From assembly GCA_964488435.1 (NCBI GenBank), contig CAZAVR010000002.1, positions 1 through 36,347 of the forward strand: a DNA stretch of 36,347 nucleotides, given 5' to 3'. This DNA comes from an uncultured Cytophagales bacterium (GTDB taxonomy: Bacteria > Bacteroidota > Bacteroidia > Cytophagales > Spirosomataceae). Of this stretch, positions 10,764 through 36,261 are shown one piece after another (within the stretch, counting starts at the first letter, position 1; each line of letters opens with the position of its first letter). The translations under genes were made by a program, and so were the position numbers. Under the pieces are notes generated by a model. That model ran no database searches, was not told where the DNA came from, and worked only from the letters and a program-made list of their open reading frames with translations.

Positions 10764-12000
10764 ACGTCATCAGGGAATTTTCAAGGAGGGGATCTTTGAA
10801 CAGCAATTTCCACTCCATGAGGCCCTGTTCCGGCGTGCACACCCACTGTTCCTCAAGTACTTTCCGGTCTTCCAGATCCCTGTATTCTGCGATCAGCCGG
10901 TTATTATCCAGCCGGAGTAACGCGAAGCCATTGTAGCCAATATTGTGGCGCCCTATGCGCTTGCGAATCCGGTTATCGGAGGAATATATTTTATTCAGTT
11001 CGGTGACAGATCGCGGGAGCTCTGTTTCTACAGGCATACCACCGTGCCCGATGCAGCGGCCATAAACCCCGGGGCCCACCGGGTCTTCCGTCATATTATA
11101 AAGTACAAGGCGGTGCTCGTGGCCCCAAAACCAGATCACAGGCCGGTTGGCATCACCCAGTAGTTCGCGTATTTGTTTTCCTGCTTTTGGAAATGACTTG
11201 CCAAAGGCTGAAGTATAGGGGTGATGACTAAGTAGTACGATGCCCCTTTTGTCGTCCGGATCCCCGATTTTTACAATATCCCGGAGCCAGTCTACCTGTT
11301 CCTTTCTGAGATGGCCATCGGGGGGGAAAAGTACCTCCAGAAAGGGCCTACCCACGGAGGTATATCCGGTATCCAGGCCCACGATTTTCCAGTGTGCATT
11401 TTCGAGGCAGAAAAAACTGGCCTGCTGGCTTTTTTTCACGCCGTCCTGTACCACAAACATGGCGGGGAGCAGGTGATTGAAAAAGGCATTTCCATTTGAA
11501 TACATCTCGTGGTTACCTGGTAGTGCCAGGCTGCCCATGGCCCCATAGTGCCAAGAGGCATGTGGAGCTGTGAAATTTTCCGCTACTTCGGCGGGGGTAC
11601 CGACAAAATAGATGTCACCGAGGTGTATGGTATAGTCGGGATTGTACCGGGTGACCAGGTGTGCAACTTTGTCAGCCTCTTCTGTGTCGCTCGCCCAGTC
11701 TGAAAGCAGCGCAATGCTGATTTTCCCGCCGGAGTCCTTTGCAGGATAGAGCTGGTAAACCCCGCAGTCGCCATGAACAGGATACGCCTGGTATTTATGA
11801 CGTTTTCCAAATCGGCTTCTTACGTAATGATAGCAAAATGCGAAAAGGTTGGTTTTAAAAAACTCAGAAATAATCCGGGTAACAGAAGACGTATTGGCGA
11901 CGTGTTCTTCATAGAGCTTTTGTTGCGTTCTCGCGTGATTCTCGAGCTCTGTATGGCCTGTATCCAGGTATTTTTTTAATTTTTCGTCAGGTGAGCTCAT
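10762..12000 (-). CDS. calcineurin-like metallophosphoesterase
   Basis: 412 aa with the ordered motifs LSDW..D, HLGDIYFVG, LPGNHEMY, LLSHHP and WGHEHR, typical of the metallophosphoesterase superfamily. Confidence 0.85.
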   Translation of the reverse strand: MSSPDEKLKKYLDTGHTELENHARTQQKLYEEHVANTSSVTRIISEFFKTNLFAFCYHYVRSRFGKRHKYQAYPVHGDCGVYQLYPAKDSGGKISIALLSDWASDTEEADKVAHLVTRYNPDYTIHLGDIYFVGTPAEVAENFTAPHASWHYGAMGSLALPGNHEMYSNGNAFFNHLLPAMFVVQDGVKKSQQASFFCLENAHWKIVGLDTGYTSVGRPFLEVLFPPDGHLRKEQVDWLRDIVKIGDPDDKRGIVLLSHHPYTSAFGKSFPKAGKQIRELLGDANRPVIWFWGHEHRLVLYNMTEDPVGPGVYGRCIGHGGMPVETELPRSVTELNKIYSSDNRIRKRIGRHNIGYNGFALLRLDNNRLIAEYRDLEDRKVLEEQWVCTPEQGLMEWKLLFKDPLLENSLMT

Positions 12001-12015
12001 CGGGGCAGGGACAGT

Positions 12016-13575
12016 TTATTTTATCCTGGCCAGTACGATCCCATTTTTCTCAAAAAGGAGTTCGTGGTTCGGGTAATCTTTCAGGTTAGTCATTCTGGCC
12101 AGCACGATCTCTCCGCGGGCAGGTTTTCTCTCCTCGGCAAACAATCCGGAATAGAAATAGAAGCTGGGCAGGTAATGATCGAACACCACGAGGCCACTCA
12201 GTTTATTGTCGCGGGCGAAAATAGCCGCGTCTTTAACAGGTTGCTGAAGCAGATCACCCACACGGGGCATAATCAGTCCGTTCACTGTTGCCAGCAATAC
12301 GAGTCCGGAGATCCATACTTTTATCTCTTTGGGCCATTTTTTGAATAACAAAATTGTGCAAAGCACGACGATCAGTGCGCCTGTCTGCAGCAGGTAAGTA
12401 GTATCAAATGCTATAGTGGCGGCGCGAAGCACTTCGGCAGCGTAAGGATCGTTGACCGATGCGGAGATCTTGTCAATCAGAAACGGAAAAAGGAACAGAA
12501 TGGCCAGAAATAGCAAAGAAGGAAAAACAAGCGGAAGCGAAGTTTTGTAATGGACATACCAGCCAGCCATCACAAATAGGGGTGTATAGCCATAAATGAT
12601 GTAATGATGCAGCTTGGTGCCTGAAAGCGAAAAGAATATAAATACGAAAGTAAACCACAGTAACATAAATGAATACCACCTGTCATACCACAGGTAGCGA
12701 AGCTTCCCGAACATCGCAAATATGACACCTGTAAACGGTAATACACCCAGGATCAGCACAGGAACAAAGTACAAAATGCCCCCGTAATGGCCTTCGAAGG
12801 CCGTCTGGAAGCGGTTCATGTTATGATTGAAAAAGAACCCCTGTATGAAGAGATCTCCCATTTTGCTGAACTGCAACCCATACCAGGGAAGTGCGATGAT
12901 TAGAAAAAGAAGGATACCCGGCAGGTAAAAAATTCGCAGAAGATTTCTCCATAGATTCCACCTCAGAAGGTAGATCAGGGTCACGGCGCCCGGCACCATA
13001 ATGGCGATGGGGCCTTTGCATAGGAAGCCGAAGCCGGTCAAAGCATAAAACCCAAGAAGGAAAGCTCTTTTGCCTTTATTCAGTACCTCATACAGACAAA
13101 ACATTGCTCCCGCCAGGCATGCATTCAGGAGTGCATCCGCGATGGCGGCCTTGCCGATGATCGTGATCTGTAATGAACATGCAGCCATGAGGGCGGCATA
13201 AAAAGCGGTCGCCTCTCCGGATTTTCGTCTGACAAACAGGTAAATAAATATCATCCAGAGTGTGGCAGCGGCGGCAGAGGGGAACCGAAAGGCGAATTCA
13301 TTCCAGCCGAAAATTTCAGCGGAGATGTACTGAAGCCAATTGGTAAGGGGAGGCTTGTCGAATCTGGCCTCTTTATTGACGTAGGTGGAAACGAAATCGT
13401 TGTTGAGAGCCATTTCCCTTGTCCCTTCCGCAAAGAAGCCCTCGTCTTCATCAAAAAGAGGCGCCCCTCCCAGATTCCAGAAGAAACTGAAGGCAACAGA
13501 TAATATTAGTATCCAGCGCCTGAGCTGAGCCGGATGTATGGTTTGTAAATTCACTTCTGTTGATTTAATGGCCAA
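12016..13575 (-). CDS. ArnT-like phospholipid-carrier-dependent glycosyltransferase (GT39/GT83, GT-C fold)
   Basis: 519 aa and polytopic. The N-terminal PLFDEDEGFFAEGTREM...RFDKPPLTNW is the signature first-loop region of ArnT/PMT family enzymes. Confidence 0.8.
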   Translation of the reverse strand: MAIKSTEVNLQTIHPAQLRRWILILSVAFSFFWNLGGAPLFDEDEGFFAEGTREMALNNDFVSTYVNKEARFDKPPLTNWLQYISAEIFGWNEFAFRFPSAAAATLWMIFIYLFVRRKSGEATAFYAALMAACSLQITIIGKAAIADALLNACLAGAMFCLYEVLNKGKRAFLLGFYALTGFGFLCKGPIAIMVPGAVTLIYLLRWNLWRNLLRIFYLPGILLFLIIALPWYGLQFSKMGDLFIQGFFFNHNMNRFQTAFEGHYGGILYFVPVLILGVLPFTGVIFAMFGKLRYLWYDRWYSFMLLWFTFVFIFFSLSGTKLHHYIIYGYTPLFVMAGWYVHYKTSLPLVFPSLLFLAILFLFPFLIDKISASVNDPYAAEVLRAATIAFDTTYLLQTGALIVVLCTILLFKKWPKEIKVWISGLVLLATVNGLIMPRVGDLLQQPVKDAAIFARDNKLSGLVVFDHYLPSFYFYSGLFAEERKPARGEIVLARMTNLKDYPNHELLFEKNGIVLARIK

Positions 13576-22031: not shown

Positions 22032-24638
22032 ATGTATCATACAGCGATAGGAAATTTTGGCCATTTATTTGTGATCATAGCGTTCGTGACGGCGTTAATG
22101 GCTACCTACTCCTATATCAGGGCCGGAATAGCTGCGGAGCTTTCTCCCGCGCATTCGACATGGAGGAATTTTGCCAGATGGACGTTTTATACCCATTCTG
22201 CTGCGGTTTTGGGTATCGTGTTTTGCCTCTACTGGATCATAATGAACCATTACTTCGAGTATCATTATGCCTGGGATAATTCGTCGTTATCGCTCCCTAC
22301 CGGTTATATCATTTCGAGTTTCTGGCAGGACCAGGAAGGAAGTTTCCTCCTGTGGATTTTCTGGAATGTGGTACTTGGACTTGTACTGATCGTTACCAAT
22401 AAGTCCTGGGAATCACCTGTGATGGCCGTTTTTGCGCTGGTACAGGCTTTTCTGGCTTCCATGATTCTGGGTGTAGTCATACCCGGTCTGGACCTCAAGA
22501 TCGGATCTACGCCGTTTTTGTTGCTGAGAGAATCCATGCCTGATTTGCCGGTTTGGAAGATGGATCCGAATTTCATACCCAAAGACGGAAATGGGCTGAA
22601 CCCGCTCCTGCAAAATTACTGGATGGTCATTCACCCCCCGACTTTGTTTCTGGGTTTTGCGACGACATTGATCCCCTTTTCGTTTGCCATTGCCGGCTTA
22701 TGGCTTAGAAAATCGCATGACTGGATCCGTCCGGCATTGCCCTGGGCCTTGTTTTCTGCGCTTGTGCTGGGTGTTGGAATACTTATGGGGGCGTATTGGG
22801 CTTATGAAACCCTGAATTTCGGTGGATACTGGAACTGGGATCCTGTAGAGAATTCGTCATTCGTGCCCTGGCTCGTACTTATCGCAGCCATTCATACGAT
22901 GATCATCTCCAGGAGAAATGCTACAGCCCTTAAGACATCTTTTATACTCACTATAGCAAGTTTCCTTCTTATCCTCTACTCCACATTCATGACCAGAAGT
23001 GGAATATTGGGTAATGCATCTGTACACTCATTTACAGACTTGGGGCTTTCGGGGCAGTTGCTTATTTACTTGCTGACGTTTACCATCGCAGCCATTGCGT
23101 TGCTCGTTTTCAGGTGGAAGGATTTGCCGGATGATAAAGAAGAAGTGTCGAGCTACTCGCAGGAGTTCTGGATCTTTATAGGTGCTGTGGTGTTATGTCT
23201 TTCCGGGTTTCAGATATTGTTCACCACCTCTTTCCCGGTATATAATAAGATCGCCGAATTGTTCGGATTCATTCTCAACCTGGCGCTACCGACAGATCAG
23301 ATCGCACACTATAATAAGTTCCAGCTCTGGTTTTTTGTACTGGTAGTCATTCTTACAGGCGTAGGGCAGTTTTTCTGGTGGAAAAGGATAGGGAAGAGCA
23401 ATTTTAACGCGCTCTATCCTCCCTTGTTGATTACACTCATCCTGAGTTCCGCAGTGATTGTTTTGTGTGAGATCAAGACTTTTTCCTACATGATGTTGCT
23501 TACAGCGTCCATTTTCGCGGTTGTGGCCAATGGAACCATCATGTTCGGGATTTTCAAGGGAAACTACAAGCTTTCGGGAGGTGCCGTTACACATATAGGT
23601 GTGGCATTGATGTTGATCGGCGTACTGTTTTCGTCCGGGTACAGCAAAGTGGTTTCCATCAATAATTCCGGCCTGATGATTTCCAGGTCAGATGAATTTA
23701 CAGCCAACGACAATAAGGAGAATAAGGAGAATGTGACGCTTTGGCTCAATAAGCCTGAGAAAATGGGGGATCTTCTGCTTACCTGGCGCGATGTATACGT
23801 AGAGCCGCGCCATATCCCGGAGTATATACCCAAAAGCTGGGTAGAGCATATCGAAAAGGATTTCAGGGCGGTGGCATTAAGGGATATCACTGTTAAAGAG
23901 AAGACCTACTATAAAAAGGGTGATACACTTGAACTGTACCCGGAAAATTTCTACTACGAAATTGAGTACAGAGAACCTTCAGGCAAAGTATTTACACTGT
24001 TTCCACGGGCGCAGATCAACGACAGGATGGGACTGGTTTCCTCACCGGATATCCGTCGCATGGCCGAAAAGGATTTGTATACCTATGTAAGTATGTCAAC
24101 CAATCCGACTGCAGAAACACAGTGGGGGCCGACGGAAGACTTTAAGGTGTCGATGAAAGATACCTTCTTCGTCAACGACTATGTGGCGATTTTGGATAAT
24201 GTGGTCAGGACAGAAACCGTTGACGGTGTCACGCTGAACGAAGGAGATGCGGCTGTAAAAGCGATTATTCGGATTCTGGATAACGAGAAAGAATATATTG
24301 TTACTCCTTCATTCATCATCCGGAACAGCACGATTGGCCGGAAAGCGGAAATAAGTAAGGAGCTGGGTCTTAGAGTTCAATTCAAAGAAATAGATCCCAA
24401 TACGGGCACCTTTACTTTCTCTGTCAATGCTACTCAAAGGGATTTCATTGTCTTGAAGGCAATAGAAAAGCCACTGATTAATATCTTGTGGCTGGGTACT
24501 TTTGTACTTATTATAGGATTCACCATGGCCACCACCAGGCGATTCAGAGAATTCGTGAAGGGAAGGGACAGAGATATTCTGGCAGGCAACACCAAAGCTG
24601 GCGGATCAAAAGCAAAGCAGGTCGTCTCCGCCAAGTAG
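22032..24638 (+). CDS. ccmF: cytochrome c heme lyase / heme-handling protein CcmF (intact copy)
   Basis: 868 aa and polytopic, with the WWD motif FGGYWNWDPVENSSFVPW and a long hydrophilic C-terminal domain ending in a final TM helix. Codons 140-868 are repeated at 26294..28485. Confidence 0.9.
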   Translation: MYHTAIGNFGHLFVIIAFVTALMATYSYIRAGIAAELSPAHSTWRNFARWTFYTHSAAVLGIVFCLYWIIMNHYFEYHYAWDNSSLSLPTGYIISSFWQDQEGSFLLWIFWNVVLGLVLIVTNKSWESPVMAVFALVQAFLASMILGVVIPGLDLKIGSTPFLLLRESMPDLPVWKMDPNFIPKDGNGLNPLLQNYWMVIHPPTLFLGFATTLIPFSFAIAGLWLRKSHDWIRPALPWALFSALVLGVGILMGAYWAYETLNFGGYWNWDPVENSSFVPWLVLIAAIHTMIISRRNATALKTSFILTIASFLLILYSTFMTRSGILGNASVHSFTDLGLSGQLLIYLLTFTIAAIALLVFRWKDLPDDKEEVSSYSQEFWIFIGAVVLCLSGFQILFTTSFPVYNKIAELFGFILNLALPTDQIAHYNKFQLWFFVLVVILTGVGQFFWWKRIGKSNFNALYPPLLITLILSSAVIVLCEIKTFSYMMLLTASIFAVVANGTIMFGIFKGNYKLSGGAVTHIGVALMLIGVLFSSGYSKVVSINNSGLMISRSDEFTANDNKENKENVTLWLNKPEKMGDLLLTWRDVYVEPRHIPEYIPKSWVEHIEKDFRAVALRDITVKEKTYYKKGDTLELYPENFYYEIEYREPSGKVFTLFPRAQINDRMGLVSSPDIRRMAEKDLYTYVSMSTNPTAETQWGPTEDFKVSMKDTFFVNDYVAILDNVVRTETVDGVTLNEGDAAVKAIIRILDNEKEYIVTPSFIIRNSTIGRKAEISKELGLRVQFKEIDPNTGTFTFSVNATQRDFIVLKAIEKPLINILWLGTFVLIIGFTMATTRRFREFVKGRDRDILAGNTKAGGSKAKQVVSAK

Positions 24639-26293
24639 GAGTTAGTGACTACAGTGGAACACTGTCCTGCTTAGCCTGTCGAAGCACGGGGGGGCATGTC
24701 GTCGACCGAAGCGGAGACAAGTCCTTCGACCGTGCGACGGACCGCAAACTCAGTCCTTCGATAAACTCAGTCCTTCGATAAACTCAGTCCTTCGATAAAC
24801 TCAGGATGGCATGAAATATGTGGTAGAAAAATAACACCCATGAAGGGCAAGGCACCTACGGTTAGTGACTACAGTGGAACACTGTCCTGCTGAGCCTGTC
24901 GAAGCACGGGGGGGCATGTCGACCCTCCTATTTGTGCATAAGTAATAGCAGATCTCACGCAGACGGCTAGTCCAAGCGGACTGAAGGAGGCTTTAGTCGA
25001 GATGAGCAACCCTGCTATATAAGGGCATATCTAAGAAAGATACGCATTATTTCTGAGAATTCCAAGAAAAACGGTTTGAAATAATTTCAGTCCGGATAAA
25101 GTCAGTCAGCTTATCTTCCGGCAGGCCGCACTGTCAGTACCACTCCAGGATTCCCTGGTTGAGAATTCCGGTGCTTCTGCCTTTGAGGCTGCGTCCTAAA
25201 AACGGCGAATTGACAGATTTGGATTCGCTGCGGTCAAATACCCATTCTTCTTCGGGATCAAAGAAAGTAAGATTCGCTTCTGCTCCTTCTTCAATGGAAA
25301 GTGAGGTCAGGCCGAGAATTCTTCTGGGCTGAGAGGTGAACTTTTCAAGAAGGTCTTCCAAAGGCAATTTCGCATATTGTAATGCCACCGAGAATGCGGT
25401 CTCTAACCCGGTGATACCGAATTCTGCCAGGTCAAATTCCAGATTCTTACTTTCTTCCGCATGCGGACTGTGATCGGACACAATAGCATCTATGGTGCCC
25501 TCCTGTAAACCCTTTCTCAATGCTTTGACATCTTGCTCCGACCTGAAGGGAGGACTTACTTTCAGGTTGGTATCGAAAGAGATCAGTGCCGAGTCATCGA
25601 AAGCGAGCTGATGGGCAGCAATATCACATGTTACCGGAAGCCCTTTCTGTTTGGCGGCCTTGATAAGTCTGACCGATCCGGACGAAGATATAAGCGAGAA
25701 GTGAAGCAGTGGCGGGTGCGATCCTTTATGATTACTTGTTTCCAGGGAGTATTCCAGCAGCATGAGATCACGGGTGATCATCATCTCCTCTGACAGTGAC
25801 GGAATGCCCTTAAAGCCGAGGAGCGTGCTGGTGCGTCCTTCGTGCATTTGTCCAAAAGCCGACAGTTGCCGGTCGTCCGGTCGGTTGATGAGCAAGCCGT
25901 TAAAAGGGCGGAGATAAAGAAGCGATTTGAGAAGGATATCGGCATTCGAAATAGGATTTTCTCCGTCAGTAAATGCTACCGCACCGGTATGGTGCATATC
26001 TATCATTTCTGTAAAATCCACGCCCTTCGCCATTTTTGTTACAGACGAAGTAGGGAGTAGTGTGACCGGGCTGTCCTGTCCGGCTGATAGTATGTATTTT
26101 AGCGTGTCTTTGGAATCGACTACAGGATGCGTATTCGGAAGTAGAAGAATTCCGGTAAATCCTCCCCGGGCAGCGGCTTTTTGCAGAGAGCTGATGTCCT
26201 CAACAAGCTCGTGTCCGGGGTCCCTGAGTGCCACCCTCATATCAAGCCAGCCCGGAGACACAGACATCCCTTTTTTTTCGATTATCTCAATTC
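22447..26293. repeat. tandem segmental duplication, copy 1 (3847-bp unit)
   Basis: Matches 26294..30140 at a constant offset of 3847. Six track ORF pairs have identical translations at that offset. The 495-bp intergenic stretch and both ends were compared by eye and are identical. Confidence 0.93.
24641..24924. repeat. composite intergenic repeat element: two ~64-bp direct repeats flanking a 17-bp x 3.5 tandem array
   Basis: GTTAGTGACTACAGTGGAACACTGTCCTGCT(T/G)AGCCTGTCGAAGCACGGGGGGGCATGTCG(TCG)ACC occurs at 24641..24707 and 24861..24924, with one mismatch and one 3-nt indel. Between them, AAACTCAGTCCTTCGAT is repeated head-to-tail at 24746, 24763 and 24780, with a partial fourth unit ending at 24804. 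Confidence 0.9.
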
Positions 26294-26297
26294 CTTT
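25134..26297 (-). pseudogene. 5'-truncated copy of the dihydroorotase-like gene (codons 42-428 only)
   Basis: Identical to 28981..30144. The upstream 41 codons and promoter are replaced at the junction by antisense ccmF sequence. The track's 431-aa ORF (25134..26429) is therefore a chimera with 44 foreign N-terminal residues. Confidence 0.85.
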
Positions 26298-28485
26298 TCT
26301 GGCTTCCATGATTCTGGGTGTAGTCATACCCGGTCTGGACCTCAAGATCGGATCTACGCCGTTTTTGTTGCTGAGAGAATCCATGCCTGATTTGCCGGTT
26401 TGGAAGATGGATCCGAATTTCATACCCAAAGACGGAAATGGGCTGAACCCGCTCCTGCAAAATTACTGGATGGTCATTCACCCCCCGACTTTGTTTCTGG
26501 GTTTTGCGACGACATTGATCCCCTTTTCGTTTGCCATTGCCGGCTTATGGCTTAGAAAATCGCATGACTGGATCCGTCCGGCATTGCCCTGGGCCTTGTT
26601 TTCTGCGCTTGTGCTGGGTGTTGGAATACTTATGGGGGCGTATTGGGCTTATGAAACCCTGAATTTCGGTGGATACTGGAACTGGGATCCTGTAGAGAAT
26701 TCGTCATTCGTGCCCTGGCTCGTACTTATCGCAGCCATTCATACGATGATCATCTCCAGGAGAAATGCTACAGCCCTTAAGACATCTTTTATACTCACTA
26801 TAGCAAGTTTCCTTCTTATCCTCTACTCCACATTCATGACCAGAAGTGGAATATTGGGTAATGCATCTGTACACTCATTTACAGACTTGGGGCTTTCGGG
26901 GCAGTTGCTTATTTACTTGCTGACGTTTACCATCGCAGCCATTGCGTTGCTCGTTTTCAGGTGGAAGGATTTGCCGGATGATAAAGAAGAAGTGTCGAGC
27001 TACTCGCAGGAGTTCTGGATCTTTATAGGTGCTGTGGTGTTATGTCTTTCCGGGTTTCAGATATTGTTCACCACCTCTTTCCCGGTATATAATAAGATCG
27101 CCGAATTGTTCGGATTCATTCTCAACCTGGCGCTACCGACAGATCAGATCGCACACTATAATAAGTTCCAGCTCTGGTTTTTTGTACTGGTAGTCATTCT
27201 TACAGGCGTAGGGCAGTTTTTCTGGTGGAAAAGGATAGGGAAGAGCAATTTTAACGCGCTCTATCCTCCCTTGTTGATTACACTCATCCTGAGTTCCGCA
27301 GTGATTGTTTTGTGTGAGATCAAGACTTTTTCCTACATGATGTTGCTTACAGCGTCCATTTTCGCGGTTGTGGCCAATGGAACCATCATGTTCGGGATTT
27401 TCAAGGGAAACTACAAGCTTTCGGGAGGTGCCGTTACACATATAGGTGTGGCATTGATGTTGATCGGCGTACTGTTTTCGTCCGGGTACAGCAAAGTGGT
27501 TTCCATCAATAATTCCGGCCTGATGATTTCCAGGTCAGATGAATTTACAGCCAACGACAATAAGGAGAATAAGGAGAATGTGACGCTTTGGCTCAATAAG
27601 CCTGAGAAAATGGGGGATCTTCTGCTTACCTGGCGCGATGTATACGTAGAGCCGCGCCATATCCCGGAGTATATACCCAAAAGCTGGGTAGAGCATATCG
27701 AAAAGGATTTCAGGGCGGTGGCATTAAGGGATATCACTGTTAAAGAGAAGACCTACTATAAAAAGGGTGATACACTTGAACTGTACCCGGAAAATTTCTA
27801 CTACGAAATTGAGTACAGAGAACCTTCAGGCAAAGTATTTACACTGTTTCCACGGGCGCAGATCAACGACAGGATGGGACTGGTTTCCTCACCGGATATC
27901 CGTCGCATGGCCGAAAAGGATTTGTATACCTATGTAAGTATGTCAACCAATCCGACTGCAGAAACACAGTGGGGGCCGACGGAAGACTTTAAGGTGTCGA
28001 TGAAAGATACCTTCTTCGTCAACGACTATGTGGCGATTTTGGATAATGTGGTCAGGACAGAAACCGTTGACGGTGTCACGCTGAACGAAGGAGATGCGGC
28101 TGTAAAAGCGATTATTCGGATTCTGGATAACGAGAAAGAATATATTGTTACTCCTTCATTCATCATCCGGAACAGCACGATTGGCCGGAAAGCGGAAATA
28201 AGTAAGGAGCTGGGTCTTAGAGTTCAATTCAAAGAAATAGATCCCAATACGGGCACCTTTACTTTCTCTGTCAATGCTACTCAAAGGGATTTCATTGTCT
28301 TGAAGGCAATAGAAAAGCCACTGATTAATATCTTGTGGCTGGGTACTTTTGTACTTATTATAGGATTCACCATGGCCACCACCAGGCGATTCAGAGAATT
28401 CGTGAAGGGAAGGGACAGAGATATTCTGGCAGGCAACACCAAAGCTGGCGGATCAAAAGCAAAGCAGGTCGTCTCCGCCAAGTAG
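26294..28485 (+). pseudogene. 5'-truncated copy of ccmF (codons 140-868 only)
   Basis: Identical to 22447..24638. It lacks the first 139 codons (the N-terminal TM helices) and the operon context. The track's 852-aa ORF (25927..28485) gets its first ~123 residues from the antisense strand of the dihydroorotase-like fragment. Confidence 0.85.
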
Positions 28486-28487
28486 GA

Positions 28488-28771
28488 GTTAGTGACTACA
28501 GTGGAACACTGTCCTGCTTAGCCTGTCGAAGCACGGGGGGGCATGTCGTCGACCGAAGCGGAGACAAGTCCTTCGACCGTGCGACGGACCGCAAACTCAG
28601 TCCTTCGATAAACTCAGTCCTTCGATAAACTCAGTCCTTCGATAAACTCAGGATGGCATGAAATATGTGGTAGAAAAATAACACCCATGAAGGGCAAGGC
28701 ACCTACGGTTAGTGACTACAGTGGAACACTGTCCTGCTGAGCCTGTCGAAGCACGGGGGGGCATGTCGACC
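28488..28771. repeat. second copy of the composite intergenic repeat element (within duplication copy 2)
   Basis: Identical to 24641..24924 at offset 3847. The 17-mer array is at 28593..28651. Confidence 0.9.
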
Positions 28772-28980
28772 CTCCTATTTGTGCATAAGTAATAGCAGAT
28801 CTCACGCAGACGGCTAGTCCAAGCGGACTGAAGGAGGCTTTAGTCGAGATGAGCAACCCTGCTATATAAGGGCATATCTAAGAAAGATACGCATTATTTC
28901 TGAGAATTCCAAGAAAAACGGTTTGAAATAATTTCAGTCCGGATAAAGTCAGTCAGCTTATCTTCCGGCAGGCCGCACTG

Positions 28981-30267
28981 TCAGTACCACTCCAGGATTC
29001 CCTGGTTGAGAATTCCGGTGCTTCTGCCTTTGAGGCTGCGTCCTAAAAACGGCGAATTGACAGATTTGGATTCGCTGCGGTCAAATACCCATTCTTCTTC
29101 GGGATCAAAGAAAGTAAGATTCGCTTCTGCTCCTTCTTCAATGGAAAGTGAGGTCAGGCCGAGAATTCTTCTGGGCTGAGAGGTGAACTTTTCAAGAAGG
29201 TCTTCCAAAGGCAATTTCGCATATTGTAATGCCACCGAGAATGCGGTCTCTAACCCGGTGATACCGAATTCTGCCAGGTCAAATTCCAGATTCTTACTTT
29301 CTTCCGCATGCGGACTGTGATCGGACACAATAGCATCTATGGTGCCCTCCTGTAAACCCTTTCTCAATGCTTTGACATCTTGCTCCGACCTGAAGGGAGG
29401 ACTTACTTTCAGGTTGGTATCGAAAGAGATCAGTGCCGAGTCATCGAAAGCGAGCTGATGGGCAGCAATATCACATGTTACCGGAAGCCCTTTCTGTTTG
29501 GCGGCCTTGATAAGTCTGACCGATCCGGACGAAGATATAAGCGAGAAGTGAAGCAGTGGCGGGTGCGATCCTTTATGATTACTTGTTTCCAGGGAGTATT
29601 CCAGCAGCATGAGATCACGGGTGATCATCATCTCCTCTGACAGTGACGGAATGCCCTTAAAGCCGAGGAGCGTGCTGGTGCGTCCTTCGTGCATTTGTCC
29701 AAAAGCCGACAGTTGCCGGTCGTCCGGTCGGTTGATGAGCAAGCCGTTAAAAGGGCGGAGATAAAGAAGCGATTTGAGAAGGATATCGGCATTCGAAATA
29801 GGATTTTCTCCGTCAGTAAATGCTACCGCACCGGTATGGTGCATATCTATCATTTCTGTAAAATCCACGCCCTTCGCCATTTTTGTTACAGACGAAGTAG
29901 GGAGTAGTGTGACCGGGCTGTCCTGTCCGGCTGATAGTATGTATTTTAGCGTGTCTTTGGAATCGACTACAGGATGCGTATTCGGAAGTAGAAGAATTCC
30001 GGTAAATCCTCCCCGGGCAGCGGCTTTTTGCAGAGAGCTGATGTCCTCAACAAGCTCGTGTCCGGGGTCCCTGAGTGCCACCCTCATATCAAGCCAGCCC
30101 GGAGACACAGACATCCCTTTTTTTTCGATTATCTCAATTCCTTTTTCGGCGGGAATTGCCGGTGCGATACGGGAAATTTTTCCGTTTTCGACGAGGAGAT
30201 CGACCACTTTGTTGTGGTGGGCAGATGGTTTATCGATGATCCTAACCGAACGAATCAGAATACGCAT
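28981..30267 (-). CDS. dihydroorotase-like amidohydrolase (intact copy), probably a non-catalytic PyrC'-type
   Basis: 428 aa, collinear with class I dihydroorotases (SPGWLD..., AAARGGFTGILLLPNTHPV, AFTDGE, VTCDIAAHQL, IVSDHSPH). The metal-binding DxHxH is replaced by DMRVALRDPG. Confidence 0.8.
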   Translation of the reverse strand: MRILIRSVRIIDKPSAHHNKVVDLLVENGKISRIAPAIPAEKGIEIIEKKGMSVSPGWLDMRVALRDPGHELVEDISSLQKAAARGGFTGILLLPNTHPVVDSKDTLKYILSAGQDSPVTLLPTSSVTKMAKGVDFTEMIDMHHTGAVAFTDGENPISNADILLKSLLYLRPFNGLLINRPDDRQLSAFGQMHEGRTSTLLGFKGIPSLSEEMMITRDLMLLEYSLETSNHKGSHPPLLHFSLISSSGSVRLIKAAKQKGLPVTCDIAAHQLAFDDSALISFDTNLKVSPPFRSEQDVKALRKGLQEGTIDAIVSDHSPHAEESKNLEFDLAEFGITGLETAFSVALQYAKLPLEDLLEKFTSQPRRILGLTSLSIEEGAEANLTFFDPEEEWVFDRSESKSVNSPFLGRSLKGRSTGILNQGILEWY

Positions 30268-30754: not shown

Positions 30755-31027
30755 ATAGATTTGGAATGAAGAATTTCGGGTTATGATTCAATGGCGCAAT
30801 GTTATATAAGATTAGCGAACTTTCCAAACGAAATACGAATATGATTTCGGGCGGAGGTAACTGTCCTGCCGGAGATGGCGAGCGTGGAGATCAGAGGATT
30901 TGGGGGGCTTCATTGAACTCCCGTTTCGGTAGGTTTCACTGTGGTTTATAATCAGTAAAGTGTGAAAACAAACTTGGTGATCTCAAATTCCGTATCTTTG
31001 TATTTTACAAGAATTACAGCGATTGTT

Positions 31028-32101
31028 ATGTTAGATAAGTTAGAGTCCATCAAGGAGCGTTTCGGGGAAGTAGAGCAGCAGATTATGCAACCGGAAGTTG
31101 TATCCGACTCTAAACGGTTTTCGAAGTTGAGCAAGGAGTACAAGGATCTGGGTCGTATAGTGGAACAGTATCAACAGTATCAGAAGGTTCTGAATAATAT
31201 AGCAGATGCAAAGGCGATCATTGCTGAAGAAAGCGATGAGGAGCTGCGCGAAATGGCGAAGGAAGAACTTAACGAACTGGTACCACGCCAGACGGAAATG
31301 GAGCAGGTGATCAAAGAGCTTTTGATCCCTAAAGATCCGAACGACAGCAGAAATATCATACTCGAAGTCAGGGCAGGTACCGGTGGGGATGAGGCGGCTA
31401 TTTTTGCCGGCGATCTGTTTCGAATGTATCAGCGTTTTATAGAGCGCACGGGCTTGAGGCTGTCAGTGTTGGATTTCACGGAAGGCTCTACCGGCGGATA
31501 CAAGGAAATTGTGTGTAAGGTGGAAGGCGAAGATGTGTATGCCAAACTCAAGTTCGAGTCAGGGGTGCACAGAGTGCAGCGGGTACCGGTGACCGAGTCA
31601 CAGGGAAGGGTTCATACCTCTGCTGCAACTGTGGCTGTATTGCCCGAGGCAGAGGAAGTGGATGTGGATGTAAGTTGGAATGACATCCGGATTGACACCT
31701 TTAACTCATCGGGTGCAGGTGGACAGTCCGTAAACACAACCTACTCAGCGGTGAGGCTCACACATATTCCTTCGGGGCTGGTGGTCAGTTGCCAGGACGA
31801 GCGTTCACAGCTGAAAAACAAGGAACGGGCGATGTCTGTGCTTCGTTCTCGTTTGTTCGAGATTGAGCGGCAGAAGCAGCATGATGCAATCAGTTCTCAG
31901 CGAAAGTCGATGGTGGGCTCCGGAGACAGATCTGATAAAATCCGCACGTATAATTATCCTCAAAGCCGTGTGACGGATCATCGTATCGGTTATACTGTTT
32001 ATAATTTGCCGGCGGTAATGGACGGAGAGATTGGCGATTTCATAGAGAATCTAAGGATTGCTGAAACAGCAGAAAGGATGCAGGAGGGAGAGATGGTGTA
32101 A
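31028..32101 (+). CDS. prfA: peptide chain release factor 1
   Basis: The RF1 tripeptide region RVPVTESQGRVHTS and the GGQ motif SSGAGGQSVNTT are present. I chose the ATG at 31028 (MLDKLESIKERF), internal to the track ORF that starts at 30962. Confidence 0.93.
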   Translation: MLDKLESIKERFGEVEQQIMQPEVVSDSKRFSKLSKEYKDLGRIVEQYQQYQKVLNNIADAKAIIAEESDEELREMAKEELNELVPRQTEMEQVIKELLIPKDPNDSRNIILEVRAGTGGDEAAIFAGDLFRMYQRFIERTGLRLSVLDFTEGSTGGYKEIVCKVEGEDVYAKLKFESGVHRVQRVPVTESQGRVHTSAATVAVLPEAEEVDVDVSWNDIRIDTFNSSGAGGQSVNTTYSAVRLTHIPSGLVVSCQDERSQLKNKERAMSVLRSRLFEIERQKQHDAISSQRKSMVGSGDRSDKIRTYNYPQSRVTDHRIGYTVYNLPAVMDGEIGDFIENLRIAETAERMQEGEMV

Positions 32102-32143: not shown

Positions 32144-32428
32144 ATGTCCTTAACTGAATCAACTCTTTTTAAACTTTCCGATCAGCAGATTTCTTCTGAT
32201 CTTGCCGGAGAAAAAGTTATTCTGAACCATGATAAAGGCGCCTACTATGCGCTGGATGAGGTGGGTGCGCTTGTGTGGAGCGAGCTGGAGAAGGGTACAG
32301 CAAGCCTGGGCACACTCAAGGACCGGATTATGGAATACTATGAGATAGATCCAGAAACACTGCACGCTGATCTGACGGAACTCCTGAGAGAGCTCGTGGA
32401 AGAGAAGCTCGTGGAGAAAGTCGTGTAG
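32144..32428 (+). CDS. PqqD-family RiPP recognition element (lasso peptide B1-like chaperone)
   Basis: 94 aa with the length and pattern of PqqD/RRE proteins (ILNHDKGAYYALDEVGALVWSELEKG...LKDRIMEYYEIDPETLHADLTELLRELVEEKLV). It is directly followed by a B2-like gene after a 3-nt gap. Confidence 0.8.
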   Translation: MSLTESTLFKLSDQQISSDLAGEKVILNHDKGAYYALDEVGALVWSELEKGTASLGTLKDRIMEYYEIDPETLHADLTELLRELVEEKLVEKVV

Positions 32429-32431
32429 CTT

Positions 32432-32869
32432 ATGGTTTCACTCAGGGCGAATTACCGTAGATGGAAGACACTGACAGGAGATCAGAAAAGGGCTTTTCTG
32501 CGTGCCTCGGTGTTGTTGTCTGTGATAGGCCTTGGATTAAGGATTCTGCCTTTTTCACGTTTCAGGAAGTGGTATCATCGCCTGGCTTCGTCTTCAGTAA
32601 GCAGGGAGACAGAGGCCGAGGAGCTGGAGCGGGTATCCTGGGCGGTGCGTACCGCCGCTCATCATCTTCCCTTTACACTTTTGTGCCTTCCGCAGGCGCT
32701 GACACTAAAGTATATGCTTAGGCATGAGGCCGGTTTGAATTTGCATATCGGTGTTCAGAAAGATGCAGTGCAGGGTTTTATGGCGCACGCCTGGGTTGAA
32801 AAAGACAGTAGGACCATTATAGGAGATTTGCCTGAAATGAACTTTCAGCCTTTGTGGATATGGAATTAG
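32432..32869 (+). CDS. transglutaminase-like cysteine protease (lasso peptide B2-like leader peptidase)
   Basis: 145 aa. TLLCLPQALTLKYMLRHEAGLNLHIGV...FMAHAWVEKDSRTIIGD carries the Cys / His / Asp arrangement of McjB-C-terminal/B2 proteins. Confidence 0.8.
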   Translation: MVSLRANYRRWKTLTGDQKRAFLRASVLLSVIGLGLRILPFSRFRKWYHRLASSSVSRETEAEELERVSWAVRTAAHHLPFTLLCLPQALTLKYMLRHEAGLNLHIGVQKDAVQGFMAHAWVEKDSRTIIGDLPEMNFQPLWIWN

Positions 32870-32926
32870 GACTGTTTGGGAACACTTCGACTCGTCTGAC
32901 AATATTTAGATAGAACCGCTTTATCA

Positions 32927-33853
32927 ATGCATCATTACACGGCTTATGGGTTAAACTTTGCTTCTGATATCGAACTTGTCGAATGTGTACGCACGGATGC
33001 TGCACAGACAGACTTCGTGATCAGATCAGGTACGTTTCCCATCCCTGAACTTACACCGGTTAATATCAGAAGGCGCGGTGGGCAGGCCGCCTGCGCGATC
33101 GGGCCTGACGGAGCCTGCTATATACATTGGGAGGGCGTTGCGACTTTCAGGGCAGTGGAAGGGCGTCTGCTGGAAGTGCAGGCTTACACGAACCATGGAG
33201 ATGTACTAAGCCTTTTTACCGTTTGCGAGGCATTGGGATTGATTCTTTTTCAGCGACAATATTTCCTTCTCCATGCCAGTGCTGTACAGGTAGGCCATGA
33301 AGCGTGGGTATTTATTGCCAATCCGGGCACAGGTAAATCAACAACGTCGGCAGCATTTGTTAAGGCAGGCTGTCCTTTGTTAAGCGACGATCTGACTGCG
33401 ATTGTTTTCGATGACACGCAATCAGCCTACGTACAGCCGGGTTACCCTCAGCTGAAAATCTGGGAGTCTGCGGTTTCGGGGCTGGGCTATGATCCTGATC
33501 GTCTGCCCCTGGTTACAGAAGGTGTCCGGAAATATGCGTTGTATCCCAGTGAAAATTTTCCTTCGTCTCCGGTTAGATTGACAAAGATTTTCTTCCTGGA
33601 GCCTACCGGTGGCCCCACCGTTCCGGAGGAGATGAGTCCGGGGATTTTCCCTGTAGAATGCCTGAAACACTTTTCTCTTTCCAACTTCTTTATCAAGGCG
33701 GAGCATCAGGTAAGGTTTTTCAAACAGAGCGTGATGTGTGCCCGCTCGAGTACCATTTTCCGTCTATCCAGGCCGGACGGTTTCGCTGCGCTGGAGCAAT
33801 GGGTAGAGCGGTGTATTGAGGAGGCTTATTCTTCTGAAAAAACGGATAAGTAA
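32927..33853 (+). CDS. HPr-kinase-like (HprK-related) serine kinase
   Basis: 308 aa. LLHASAVQVGHEAWVFIANPGTGKSTTSAAFVKAGCPLLSDDLTAIV matches the P-loop plus (L/V)xxDD core of the HPr kinase C-terminal fold, as seen in lasso-peptide kinases. Confidence 0.75.
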   Translation: MHHYTAYGLNFASDIELVECVRTDAAQTDFVIRSGTFPIPELTPVNIRRRGGQAACAIGPDGACYIHWEGVATFRAVEGRLLEVQAYTNHGDVLSLFTVCEALGLILFQRQYFLLHASAVQVGHEAWVFIANPGTGKSTTSAAFVKAGCPLLSDDLTAIVFDDTQSAYVQPGYPQLKIWESAVSGLGYDPDRLPLVTEGVRKYALYPSENFPSSPVRLTKIFFLEPTGGPTVPEEMSPGIFPVECLKHFSLSNFFIKAEHQVRFFKQSVMCARSSTIFRLSRPDGFAALEQWVERCIEEAYSSEKTDK

Positions 33854-33858
33854 TTTTC

Positions 33859-34959
33859 ATGACCGATCTGAATATTTCTCCCGAACTTTCTTTGCTGCTT
33901 TCTGCCTGTCTGGCTGAGAAGCCTGCCCCGCCACCTGTAGCGGCTGTGGACTGGGAGGTATTCATACAACTCTCCAGGCAAAACGGGGTACTGGCTTTGG
34001 TAGCAGACCGCCTGGGAGATCTCGCTCCGGGCGAAATAGCGAGACGGATAACCAATGAGGCCGTTCTTCAGGCGATGCATAATCTCATGGCGATGCGGAG
34101 AATGCTGGAAGTGAAGAAGTGTTTGTCTGAGGCCGGTGTTCGTGCTTTTCCGATGAAAGGTCCGCTTTGGGGGTGGCTTTATTATAATAATACAGGATTG
34201 CGCAGTTTCGGGGATCTCGACTTTTTTATAGAGACGGGTGATCTGGTCAAAGGCGTGGACGCTTTGAAAACACTGGGATTCAGAATAGATGATTACAGAA
34301 CATATCTCCTGAGCGGCCATAATTTGTTCGAGGCGTACGTGAGGACTGACTATCAACTTGCGTTGACACCTGAAAAAGAGGGGGACGTCAAACTGATTGA
34401 GCTGCAATGGCGGAATACCTATCCAAGGTTCGGACGGTTTTATACATATACAGAACTGATGGATCGCCCTTCTGCGTATCTGATCAATGGTGAAGAGGTT
34501 TTGATTCCGCGTCGGGAGTATCAATTCCTGATGATAATCATCCATCATGGGCTTATCGAACAATGGGCACGCCTGAAGTATCTTGCTGATCTGGTCTTTT
34601 TTCTTCGTAAAGAGTCAGCGGATTTAGACTGGGATTTTATATGGTCTGAATCTCAGAAGAAAGGACTGCGGAAAATGTTGCTGTTAGGCTTGTATCTGGC
34701 CGAGAGATTTTCCGGACAATCCTACACACACGCTCCTGTTTCTTTCGAAACCCTTAAAGGATATCCGTTCTCCGCCTTGCTGAAGGCCTGGGAGGAAGGA
34801 GAATCCAAAAGTACTACGAAGTCAGCCAGGATTTTCAGCTATAGCTTTAGATATAAACAGGGTTTGCGCCATAAAGCAGCGCTTTTGTCTGCACACTTCA
34901 GCTACCTGACGGAATGGAAGCTTCTTTGGCATAAGGCCAGGTGGTACAGCAGGAAATAG
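33859..34959 (+). CDS. nucleotidyltransferase-fold protein (NTP_transf_5 / 'uncharacterised nucleotidyltransferase' type)
   Basis: 366 aa. AFPMKGPLWGWLYYNNTGLRSFGDLDFFI is the characteristic K-G...R-x-F-x-D-(L/I)-D motif of this family. It starts 5 nt after the kinase gene. Confidence 0.7.
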   Translation: MTDLNISPELSLLLSACLAEKPAPPPVAAVDWEVFIQLSRQNGVLALVADRLGDLAPGEIARRITNEAVLQAMHNLMAMRRMLEVKKCLSEAGVRAFPMKGPLWGWLYYNNTGLRSFGDLDFFIETGDLVKGVDALKTLGFRIDDYRTYLLSGHNLFEAYVRTDYQLALTPEKEGDVKLIELQWRNTYPRFGRFYTYTELMDRPSAYLINGEEVLIPRREYQFLMIIIHHGLIEQWARLKYLADLVFFLRKESADLDWDFIWSESQKKGLRKMLLLGLYLAERFSGQSYTHAPVSFETLKGYPFSALLKAWEEGESKSTTKSARIFSYSFRYKQGLRHKAALLSAHFSYLTEWKLLWHKARWYSRK

Positions 34960-35344
34960 GGGCATGTTTATCTGTGCTTGATCAGCGATCTTTCCGTGAC
35001 AGTTGTATTTAATAAAGGTTCATTCAGCGTAACGCTACGTTTATTGGGCACAAGGGAGACCTTTGCGCCAGCGGATTTATTGGGTACAAGTCCTCCTAGG
35101 TTAGCGGTCGTGGGGTCATGCCGACCACGGCGGAGTCATCTCCTGTTTAAACGGAAGGGGTGTATTTTTTTGAATGTCCATCGGGTGGAAGTGGGCTGAT
35201 CGAGATGGTAATTGGTAAAAGAACCCGTGCCAAACGCAAACCGGCTAACAAGGAGACCTGAAACTGATAAAGACGCGCGGCCTGGTGCATACCTCTGTTC
35301 CGTGGCCCGTGTCCCACGGGACTTTACTGGACAATGCTGGAGCT

Positions 35345-35380
35345 AGGTGTAGTTTGGAACTACACCTTTTTATTTTTTTG
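35345..35380 (+). terminator. strong rho-independent terminator
   Basis: A perfect 10-bp stem AGGTGTAGTT (35345..35354) / AACTACACCT (35358..35367) with a 3-nt loop, followed by TTTTATTTTTTTG. It is functional only in the + orientation. Confidence 0.75.
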
Positions 35381-35569
35381 GAGCTTGCAGTTCGTTTTTG
35401 AGAGTTCGATTCGCTACGGGATGTTGCCTGTGCCGGTTGTAGTTTGCGACTATGCCTTTCTATTTCTTAAAACTACACCCGGTCCCGGTAAGGATAGCAG
35501 ACCGGAACCGGATATGTTGGAAAAATGTTATATTCGTAGCTATATTGGTACTAAAAGTCAGATAAGGGC

Positions 35570-35845
35570 ATGACACATACGTTAACCATAGAAACAAGTA
35601 ATTCTACTTACTTTGAGCAATTCAAAAGACTTGCCCGGAAGTTAGGTGTAACTGCTATTGAGAAGCACGAAGATACTACTGCTTCGTCTATTGCCGGAAA
35701 AGAGATAGGACCCGAATCAGCCGATGAGAAAGAAGAGCTTTTTTATAGCCTGTTTGGTAGTTGGGAAGGTGATGAAACCGGAGATGAACTTGTTAGACAA
35801 ATATATTCGGCCAGGGTAAGCAATACGCGCGATATTGAATTATGA
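35570..35845 (+). CDS. putative type II antitoxin partnered with the PIN-domain toxin
   Basis: 91 aa and acidic. The C-terminal LFGSWEGDETGDELVRQIYSARVSN resembles antitoxins found upstream of Bacteroidetes PIN toxins. Its stop overlaps the downstream start in an ATGA. Confidence 0.6.
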   Translation: MTHTLTIETSNSTYFEQFKRLARKLGVTAIEKHEDTTASSIAGKEIGPESADEKEELFYSLFGSWEGDETGDELVRQIYSARVSNTRDIEL

Positions 35846-36261
35846 GCAAGTATCTCTTGGATACAAATATCTGTATTCATATCATCAAGGGCGAATTCAA
35901 CCTTAAGGCTAAAATTCAAAAAATTCGCTTTCAATCCTGCTATATATCAGAGATCACGGTTGCAGAGCTTTTGTATGGAGTTGCCAATAGTGTTCCTGAT
36001 AGAAAAGCTATCAACCTTCAAAGAGTATTAGACTTAAGAACCTCGTTTTCTGAACAGACAATTTCAATAAGTGAATGTTTGGAGGAATATGGCCAACAGA
36101 AAGCCCGGCTACGAAGTATTGGCAGAAGGGTAGAGGATTTAGATATTTTTATTGGCAGTACGGCGATCGTAAAGGGATTGACACTTGTAACCAGAAATAC
36201 AAAGGATTTCATCAATATGGCTGGTATCAATTTGGAAAACTGGATTGATGAACCATCATAA
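35842..36261 (+). CDS. vapC: PIN-domain ribonuclease toxin, VapC-like
   Basis: 139 aa. The N-terminal YLLDTNICIHIIKG (first acidic PIN residue), an internal acidic residue region, and the C-terminal LTLVTRNTKDF are typical of VapC. Confidence 0.8.
   Translation: MSKYLLDTNICIHIIKGEFNLKAKIQKIRFQSCYISEITVAELLYGVANSVPDRKAINLQRVLDLRTSFSEQTISISECLEEYGQQKARLRSIGRRVEDLDIFIGSTAIVKGLTLVTRNTKDFINMAGINLENWIDEPS

Follow-up and report, generated by a model that had tools for sequence, protein, structure and literature searches.

A cyclase-less cassette of lasso-type peptide maturation genes conserved across Spirosomataceae

Introduction

The described systems closest to the locus reported here are lasso peptide clusters in which the precursor is also phosphorylated or otherwise tailored. 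The kinase BsfK phosphorylates its precursor in vitro without the cyclase, and BsfB1 speeds the kinase and helps BsfB2 to remove the leader (PMC10368454). The nucleotidyltransferase of the pseudomycoidin pathway adds hexoses to the phosphorylated peptide, and such an enzyme is fused to B2 in some clusters (PMC8498205). In this study, we analysed a contig of an uncultured, Telluribacter-like Cytophagales bacterium of the family Spirosomataceae (CAZAVR010000002.1, 36,347 nt, forward strand) carrying four adjacent genes, B1, B2, K and N, which encode homologues of such enzymes. The term window is used here for the whole 36.3-kb contig, at the right edge of which the readable sequence ends.

The B1-B2-K-N cassette proved to be conserved and selected throughout the family, and neither a cyclase nor a precursor gene is linked to it in the window. 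Our preferred reading, which we put forward tentatively, is that it constitutes a functional four-gene peptide-maturation module which derives from a lasso operon, acts in trans and independently of a cyclase, and yields a linear product.

Results

All four genes lie on the plus strand. B1 (32144-32428, 94 aa) is a PqqD-family recognition element of the kind found in pathways for peptides made by the ribosome and modified after translation (RiPP recognition element, RRE) and is predicted to bind leader peptides. B2 (32432-32869, 145 aa) is a transglutaminase-like cysteine protease of the lasso leader peptidase type. K (32927-33853, 308 aa) is a P-loop kinase of the fold shared by HprK and phosphoenolpyruvate carboxykinase (PEPCK) and a homologue of lasso-precursor Ser kinases, and N (33859-34959, 366 aa) is an NTP_transf_5 enzyme with a nucleotidyltransferase fold. 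The spacings in the list of open reading frames (ORFs) are 3, 57 and 5 nt, and the coordinates are exactly those given in the initial annotation of this DNA. B1 matches PqqD (PF05402) with E 1.8e-16 and 60.6 bits (cutoff 23.4); its NCBIfam matches are to lasso-type PqqD models only, the score against lasso_PqqD_Bac (61.6 bits) being under the cutoff of 80. B2 matches Transglut_core3 (PF13471; E 1.7e-20) and, with 92.1 bits over a cutoff of 33, the NCBIfam equivalog domain NF033537 (lasso_biosyn_B2). N matches NTP_transf_5 (PF14907; E 6.8e-43, 147.5 bits, cutoff 31.2); genes of this family come after K in canonical as well as in cyclase-less clusters elsewhere.

K gave no match in the local copy of Pfam. 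Its sole NCBIfam match, TIGR04352 (HprK_rel_A), was confined to the P-loop region (residues 110-162) and reached 37.7 bits against a trusted cutoff of 200. Sequence searches against the PDB with K, N and B2 yielded nothing useful. An AlphaFold2 model of K, built from 28 homologues, had a mean predicted local distance difference test score (pLDDT) of 94. When compared with the PDB by Foldseek, the model matched ATP-dependent PEPCKs (E 3e-8, probability 1.0) and the C-terminal domains of HPr kinase/phosphorylase (1ko7, 1kkl, 3tqf and 2qmh; E 4e-6 to 5e-5, probability 1.0). The fold predicted for K is that of the PEPCK/HprK P-loop kinases. The characterised lasso precursor kinase BsfK, the sequence of which was translated from PMC10368454, is 33% identical to K over 112 aa of the catalytic core (E 3e-14), and K homologues at 28-40% identity are encoded directly downstream of leader-bearing precursors, near cyclases. 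Sequence and genomic association thus both assign K to the predicted lasso-precursor Ser kinases of the PadeK/ThcoK/BsfK type.

The four family assignments made in the initial annotation (PqqD, B2, HPr-kinase-like and NTP_transf_5) were borne out by the Pfam and NCBIfam profiles, the fold model of K and the BsfK alignment. The suggested link to an 'HPr-rel-A system' did not hold; TIGR04352 exists, but K falls far short of its cutoff and B1 matches no HPr-rel-A PqqD model. Precomputed annotations assign PF27840, a family outside the local Pfam copy, to many close K homologues and PF07475 (Hpr_kinase_C) to a few. This recent family PF27840 may already cover the kinase clade of K.

A one-genome-per-species scan with K and a metagenome scan with a K alignment provided 114 loci, and 20 kb were read around each cassette (flanks of about 10 kb). 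In about 60 of them, K is 44-64% identical to the K of the window, and all of these carry B1-B2-K-N in the same order. Their named members are Spirosomataceae (Telluribacter, Dyadobacter, Persicitalea, Arundinibacter and Rhabdobacter), and most of the cassettes were found in Dyadobacter. The cassette occurs in at least four genomic contexts, marked by prfA, by aldehyde dehydrogenase/FtsH genes, by TPR/RadA-like genes and by C25 peptidase genes. The prfA context of the window is common only to Telluribacter. The layout in Dyadobacter, Persicitalea and Arundinibacter consists of a saccharopine dehydrogenase gene, an aldehyde dehydrogenase gene, a gap of about 60 nt, the genes B1 to N and a convergent aldose epimerase or FtsH gene. 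The cassette is wedged between unrelated housekeeping genes with no space for a further gene. Since B1-B2-K-N is intact in several contexts, the four genes move and persist as a unit. The cassette is vertically inherited across Spirosomataceae, and the cyclase-less arrangement first noticed in the window is a conserved feature of the family. At a single locus, in Arundinibacter roseus (L027, 8881-9957), a 358-aa Cys-rich ORF with no Pfam match lies between B2 and K.

All four genes are under strong purifying selection. Pairwise ratios of nonsynonymous to synonymous substitution rates (dN/dS) in unsaturated species pairs were 0.04-0.10 for B1, 0.04-0.16 for B2, 0.05-0.12 for K and 0.03-0.15 for N. 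The residues E23, V25, L27, G32, Y34, G41, W45 and D76 of B1 are invariant in 57 family orthologues, and the same eight are the majority residues in the B1 proteins of precursor-linked clusters. This sharing argues that a leader-like ligand still exists. Cys85 and His119 of B2 are invariant in 83 of 83 B2 sequences. In K, the Walker A motif G134-x-G136-K137-S138 as well as H116, D154-D155, K177 and K202 are invariant in 109 homologues. In N, the G-[SD]-x-D nucleotidyltransferase motif is present as G118-D119-x-D121; K100-G101, R115, D119-x-D121 and D244 are invariant in 68 N sequences, G118 within the family only. The catalytic residues of B2, K and N are the same in family members and in homologues belonging to canonical clusters.

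Two further observations concern the tailoring enzymes. The K proteins of the family contain a specific insertion with invariant R49-R50-G51...A54, which canonical kinases do not have. The N proteins of the family include classes about 26-30% and about 36-40% identical to the N of the window. Between two Persicitalea loci (L018 and L025, N gene at approximately 10905-12037), dN was 0.79 for N and 0.04-0.09 for B1, B2 and K. N has seemingly been swapped for divergent alleles, which hints that the transferred group may have diversified.

Genes for the remaining parts of a lasso pathway were sought in the window and around the related cassettes. Pfam scans of the large ORFs and tblastn with two bona fide cyclases (from loci L033 and L034) detected no Asn_synthase-type cyclase anywhere in the window, Pfam scans detected no ABC exporter (ABC_membrane/ABC_tran) there, and motif scans detected no leader-bearing small ORF, which agrees with what the initial annotation had reported. 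The other large ORFs of the window were found by the Pfam scan to be housekeeping genes only, including gcvT, gcvH, FeoB, cytochrome c maturation, PAP2, PMT_2 and FUSC genes. Among about 32 family loci with 10-kb flanks on both sides, tblastn revealed a single, weakly matching cyclase candidate, at L036; housekeeping genes, often convergent, stand directly after N at these loci, and the closest relative (L001) has a convergent gene in this position. The L036 candidate (3-1757) is an Asn_synthase-domain gene 25-28% identical to lasso cyclases. It is cut by the start of the locus and lies 7.5 kb upstream of the cassette, with two opposite-strand genes for gingipain-like C25 peptidases in between; the K of this locus belongs to the same sub-clade as that of the window.

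The search for precursors was based on the leader motif YxxPxLxxxGxxxxxTx, with Ile, Val or Ser also allowed at position -2 in the family scan, as suggested by PMC10368454. Used as a positive control on 53 K loci from outside the family, the motif located a precursor ORF in 33, mostly directly upstream of K. The cores of cyclase-linked precursors often end with Ser and have Asp or Glu at positions 7-9, an example being QGGPAFRVDVPFGTPLGPNGITDITS. In 987 kb of family loci, the same search gave only seven non-recurrent chance matches. When all ORFs of 18-110 aa were compared between contexts without reference to a motif, B1 and antisense shadows of K were the only ones shared, and no conserved ORF was found in the larger upstream gaps of L002-L005, L035, L038 and L036. 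The sole exporter match in the Dyadobacter loci was a stand-alone ATPase gene approximately 6.6 kb downstream of N, past housekeeping genes. Two ORFs of 512 and 603 aa upstream of the cassette in Dyadobacter, considered as cyclase candidates, encode aldehyde dehydrogenase and UvrC. Two large ORFs at L031 (L031_453 and L031_373) were dismissed as antisense artefacts caused by a high G+C content. The cassette thus has the B1 and B2 genes of a lasso cluster and lacks its two defining features, the cyclase and the precursor, together with the exporter and isopeptidase, which are accessory and not universal.

The origin of the cassette was traced with K. A neighbour-joining tree of 109 K proteins resolves the family as a monophyletic clade, the sister groups of which are L066/L069 and L064/L065, canonical clusters with K at 39-40% identity. 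The L069 operon has the order C-A-X-B1-B2-K-N, in which genes for a 664-aa cyclase, a 49-aa precursor and a 354-aa protein precede B1, B2, K and N. L069 and its relatives L064-L066 are the nearest kin of the Spirosomataceae cassette outside the family and show the same order and spacing of B1-B2-K-N. The cyclase, the 49-aa precursor with its YxxPxVxxxGxxxxxTx leader and the extra 354-aa upstream gene of the L069 type are all missing from the Spirosomataceae cassette. From the gene order and the K phylogeny, the cassette of the window is the retained 3' half of a C-A-X-B1-B2-K-N lasso operon.

A separate monophyletic K clade comprises L031/L072 (a metagenome-assembled genome, MAG, of Tepidisphaeraceae), L098, L099, L110/L113, L112 and L114. 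Its clusters are compact and have the layout B1-B2-A-K-N, or as much of it as the short contigs hold; L031 is organised as A-K-N-x-x with a convergent B1-B2-A. The clusters lie at 5209-10566 in L031/L072 and at 8920-12032 in L110/L113, and no cyclase was found over the available flanks (5.4 and 10 kb in L031/L072, 10 and 6-10 kb in L110/L113). Canonical lasso leaders are combined in the precursors with His-rich cores which start with His, e.g. HDHKPHHHGDGPESELS, HGHDHGHGHHKDDCPGSTLFDFRGESN and HGGPRSVGSGIFDHGWDDGHDHGLHKGNH; a further core of this clade is HDSSGGHSGLDCSPMGTHHRHRWWEHLF. These clusters are like the Spirosomataceae cassette in being compact and cyclase-less and in encoding the same four enzyme families. 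They differ in keeping one or two precursor genes beside K, whereas the cassette has none, and their K proteins, 31-36% identical to the K of the window, form a different clade. The cyclase was therefore lost independently in the two groups. The His-rich clade suggests that the enzyme set is able to work alone, and its clusters are candidates for an undescribed family of linear, possibly metal-binding, phosphorylated RiPPs.

The gene upstream of the cassette in the window is the housekeeping gene prfA (30962-32101, plus strand), the translation of which contains the GGQ and P-V-T motifs of RF1. Its stop codon is 42 nt from B1 and no terminator-like site was found in the gap, as the initial annotation had stated. 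The prfA gene is 90% identical to that of Telluribacter, which is also directly followed by the cassette. In the lineage of the window, prfA and the cassette are probably co-transcribed, and the short gap with no terminator makes it probable that the cassette is constitutively expressed along with this housekeeping gene. The 3' end of the prfA-B1-B2-K-N transcript is probably an intrinsic-terminator-like hairpin at 35345-35377 (plus strand), which has a 10-bp stem, a 3-nt loop and a T-run tail (TTTTATTTTT) and is located 385 nt past the stop codon of N.

The hairpin lies within a spacer of 610 nt (34960-35569) 3' of N, which is followed by an ORF of 91 aa overlapping by 4 nt with a PIN-domain ORF, in accordance with the toxin-antitoxin pair described initially. 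The spacer is not conserved in the closest relative, matched no Rfam family at the gathering threshold and, with the limit relaxed to E <= 1, only a miRNA by chance, and showed no excess of predicted structure (fold z -0.57). A 44-aa TTG-initiated ORF ending with Ser at the terminator was rejected as a precursor, having no leader motif and no conservation. The 91-aa and PIN-domain (VapC-like) ORFs beyond the non-conserved spacer (34960-36261) have a counterpart in L002, where a ParE-like pair is inserted 5' of B1 (8448-8976) and is not present in the close relative L005. Toxin-antitoxin modules thus occur at cassette edges in two unrelated contexts, and these edges resemble hot spots of insertion. 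At E <= 0.01, no PADLOC defence-system model was matched by any of the four cassette proteins or by either toxin-antitoxin ORF. Elsewhere in the window, the segments 22447-26298 and 26294-30145 repeat each other in tandem and in direct orientation, without a mismatch (100% identity; period 3847 nt). The repeated stretch takes in the greater part of a CcmF-like gene, four 61-nt repeat copies and the greater part of a minus-strand dihydroorotase-like gene. The duplication is either a very recent event or an assembly artefact of the MAG contig.

Discussion

The cyclase-independent reading can be formulated as a sequence of steps. B1 would bind the leader of a ribosomally made precursor whose gene lies elsewhere in the genome, and K, aided by B1, would use ATP to phosphorylate a Ser hydroxyl of the core peptide. 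N may then move a nucleotide-activated group, hexose or nucleotidyl, onto the phosphate made by K. The Cys-His protease B2, guided by B1, would cut off the leader, and the product would be a linear phospho- or glyco-phospho-peptide rather than a threaded lasso. We favour this reading because the conserved unit joins B1-B2 to both tailoring enzymes and not to a cyclase, because no cyclase lineage is co-distributed with the cassette, and because an independent clade has the same enzyme set alone with a precursor. Action in trans on a distant locus and a distinct system for linear peptides were two of the explanations offered in the initial annotation; both are kept here and the evidence leans to the latter.

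Several points weigh against this reading. All its chemical steps are deduced from homologues, and as 20 kb were read per cassette, unlinked cyclases or precursors may lie elsewhere in the genomes. At least three cassette genomes do have a lasso-cyclase-like gene elsewhere, namely on the chromosome with L012, in Persicitalea jodogahamensis and in Arundinibacter. The C-A-A'-K arrangement of Runella, with neither B1 nor B2, shows that split lasso pathways exist in Spirosomataceae. The canonical lasso RRE residues kept in B1 would fit a normal lasso leader equally well, and the missing Dyadobacter cyclase rests on the best 120 matches rather than on an exhaustive search.

The alternative that survives best, possible in our opinion and yet rather unlikely, is that the cassette provides recognition and removal of the leader, phosphorylation and glycosylation in trans to a precursor and an Asn-synthase-like cyclase encoded at one or more distant loci, the product being an ordinary threaded, phosphorylated lasso peptide. 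The unchanged residues of B1 and the Asn_synthase-domain gene 7.5 kb upstream of the L036 cassette are consistent with this, as is the locus of Runella slithyformis (CP002859; L117, 10001-13703). The Runella locus comprises a cyclase gene, a gene for a 49-aa precursor (YHAPQLKKYGPVANITR followed by the core ADSGTNLDSLGGDISA), a degenerate second precursor ORF and a gene for an HprK-like kinase which is a distant paralogue of K (25-28% identity). No B1, B2 or N gene was found within 10 kb, and the Runella pathway must therefore rely on a leader peptidase encoded elsewhere, i.e. on B1/B2 acting in trans.

A protein search with the L069 cyclase also found Runella proteins at 37-38% identity, a protein of a 'Spirosomaceae' MAG and the protein P0175, which is encoded on the same 6.19-Mb chromosome as L012, 3.9 Mb from the cassette of that genome. 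In P. jodogahamensis, a cyclase-like gene is on the contig of the cassette, 0.33 Mb away, and a gene of this type is also present in Arundinibacter. The sharing of a chromosome or contig with the cassette in the first two genomes is in favour of the split pathway. These proteins start with MSGI and thus, like lasso cyclases, have no Cys2; they are 35-37% identical to annotated lasso cyclases. Among the best 120 matches, orthologues of P0175 at 53-72% identity occurred only in Persicitalea, Salmonirosea, Arundinibacter and about 17 further contigs, the next matches being at 37%. No Dyadobacter protein was among these 120, although more than 20 named Dyadobacter species were among the K matches. 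The orthologue group thus covers one sub-clade and misses the genus with most of the cassettes, whereas the distribution of a family-wide partner should be as broad as that of the cassette itself.

The surroundings of these genes (L115, 10001-11965; L118, L119 and L120, 6001 to approximately 7965; from Persicitalea, Arundinibacter, Salmonirosea and a Cytophagales MAG chromosome) also speak against a split pathway. The cyclase-like gene comes last in a curli-like operon, with a gap of 13 nt to the gene before it, in the order giant curlin-repeat protein, small curlin-like protein, CsgE, CsgF, CsgG, CarboxypepD_reg/Tricorn protein and cyclase-like protein, and no leader-bearing ORF, B1 or B2 was found near it. 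In Runella salmonicolor, a cyclase-like gene follows that of a Por_Secre_tail protein, a type IX secretion system tail protein, again with no leader-bearing ORF beside it, and in one MAG it adjoins an acyl-CoA dehydrogenase gene. Such genes may serve another purpose. In the curli-like operons, a cyclase-type enzyme is associated, for no evident reason, with genes for amyloid secretion. Lasso genes are scattered in Spirosomataceae, but none of the cyclase lineages is distributed like the cassette. Moreover, the genes kept joined to B1-B2 are those of the tailoring enzymes K and N, not that of the core cyclase.

It is improbable, to a clearly greater degree, that B1, K, N and B2 were co-opted to modify a cellular or secreted protein (e.g. 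its terminal segment) or a small molecule and that no dedicated leader-bearing precursor gene exists. Vertical inheritance and attachment to housekeeping operons (prfA, aldehyde dehydrogenase) are unusual for secondary-metabolite clusters, the precursor searches around the cassette and around the orphan cyclases were negative, and both the K insertion absent from canonical kinases and the exchange of N for divergent alleles between close relatives would suit such a role. To our knowledge, however, RRE domains and B2 peptidases occur only with leader-bearing peptides; the RRE residues of B1 are unchanged from canonical B1 proteins, and in none of its contexts does the cassette have a linked gene for a candidate protein substrate.

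Truncation of an ordinary lasso cluster by the end of the contig, or its decay to a remnant, both raised in the initial annotation, would accord with the fact that just 1.4 kb separate the cassette from the right end of the metagenome-assembled contig and with the insertion-like appearance of the spacer and toxin-antitoxin pair, but this is very improbable, since the relatives with 10-kb flanks, including L001, continue after N with housekeeping or convergent genes and with no cyclase or exporter, and since dN/dS values of 0.03-0.16 together with invariant catalytic residues exclude decay and lead us to reject the remnant.

Returning to the cyclase-independent reading, we suggest, with still more reserve, a broader form of it. 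In Spirosomataceae, and independently in some Planctomycetota and other soil bacteria with His-rich precursors, these enzymes may constitute a self-sufficient cyclase-free pathway to a linear phospho-, glyco- or nucleotidyl-peptide, which in Spirosomataceae would be a family-wide constitutive trait acting on an unlinked substrate. If this is true, a new RiPP class has arisen from lasso machinery, and its role would be physiological rather than antibiotic.

Mining for lasso peptides with RODEO and antiSMASH needs a cyclase gene adjoining that of the peptidase, so that cyclase-less cassettes remain invisible or are discarded as false positives. About half of the RRE-Finder matches to the discrete lasso RRE model had no co-occurring cyclase and peptidase (PMC7470986). 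The present results show one such cyclase-less set to be conserved throughout a bacterial family, in which it is inherited and under selection. Our literature searches found no published description of cyclase-less B1-B2-K-N cassettes or His-rich B1-B2-A-K-N clusters, nor of lasso peptides from Dyadobacter. Together with the independent clade that has the same enzymes and His-rich precursors, the cassette points either to an unrecognised class of linear phospho- or glyco-peptides or to RiPP pathways scattered over megabases, and either outcome would alter the strategy of searching for such clusters. Concrete systems for testing are offered by culturable strains of Dyadobacter and Persicitalea, for the orphan cassette, and by the five-gene B1-B2-A-K-N clusters from metagenomes.

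Among known systems, the cassette would operate like the B1/B2/K/N portion of the paeninodin, pseudomycoidin and bsf pathways. The 'HprK-related kinase A' system defined by TIGR04352 also combines an HprK-related P-loop kinase with a neighbouring PqqD-family protein, but K, with 37.7 of 200 bits over the P-loop, and B1, which misses the matching PqqD model, are not members of it. The pseudomycoidin (psm) cluster of Bacillus pseudomycoides has the same pairing of a kinase and a nucleotidyltransferase. Its nucleotidyltransferase gene adjoins B2, to which it is sometimes fused in other clusters, and the enzyme adds hexose to phosphoserine (PMC8498205); the psm cluster has A, C and D, which the cassette of the window does not. 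The paeninodin, ThcoK and Bradymonas bsf clusters (A, C, B1, B2 and D with K) resemble the cassette in their split B1/B2 and homologous P-loop kinase, and the bsf kinase is likewise aided by B1 (PMC10368454). In contrast to this type, the cassette has no precursor, cyclase or ABC exporter gene in the window and in the approximately 60 orthologous loci, and it is a family-wide element attached to housekeeping genes.

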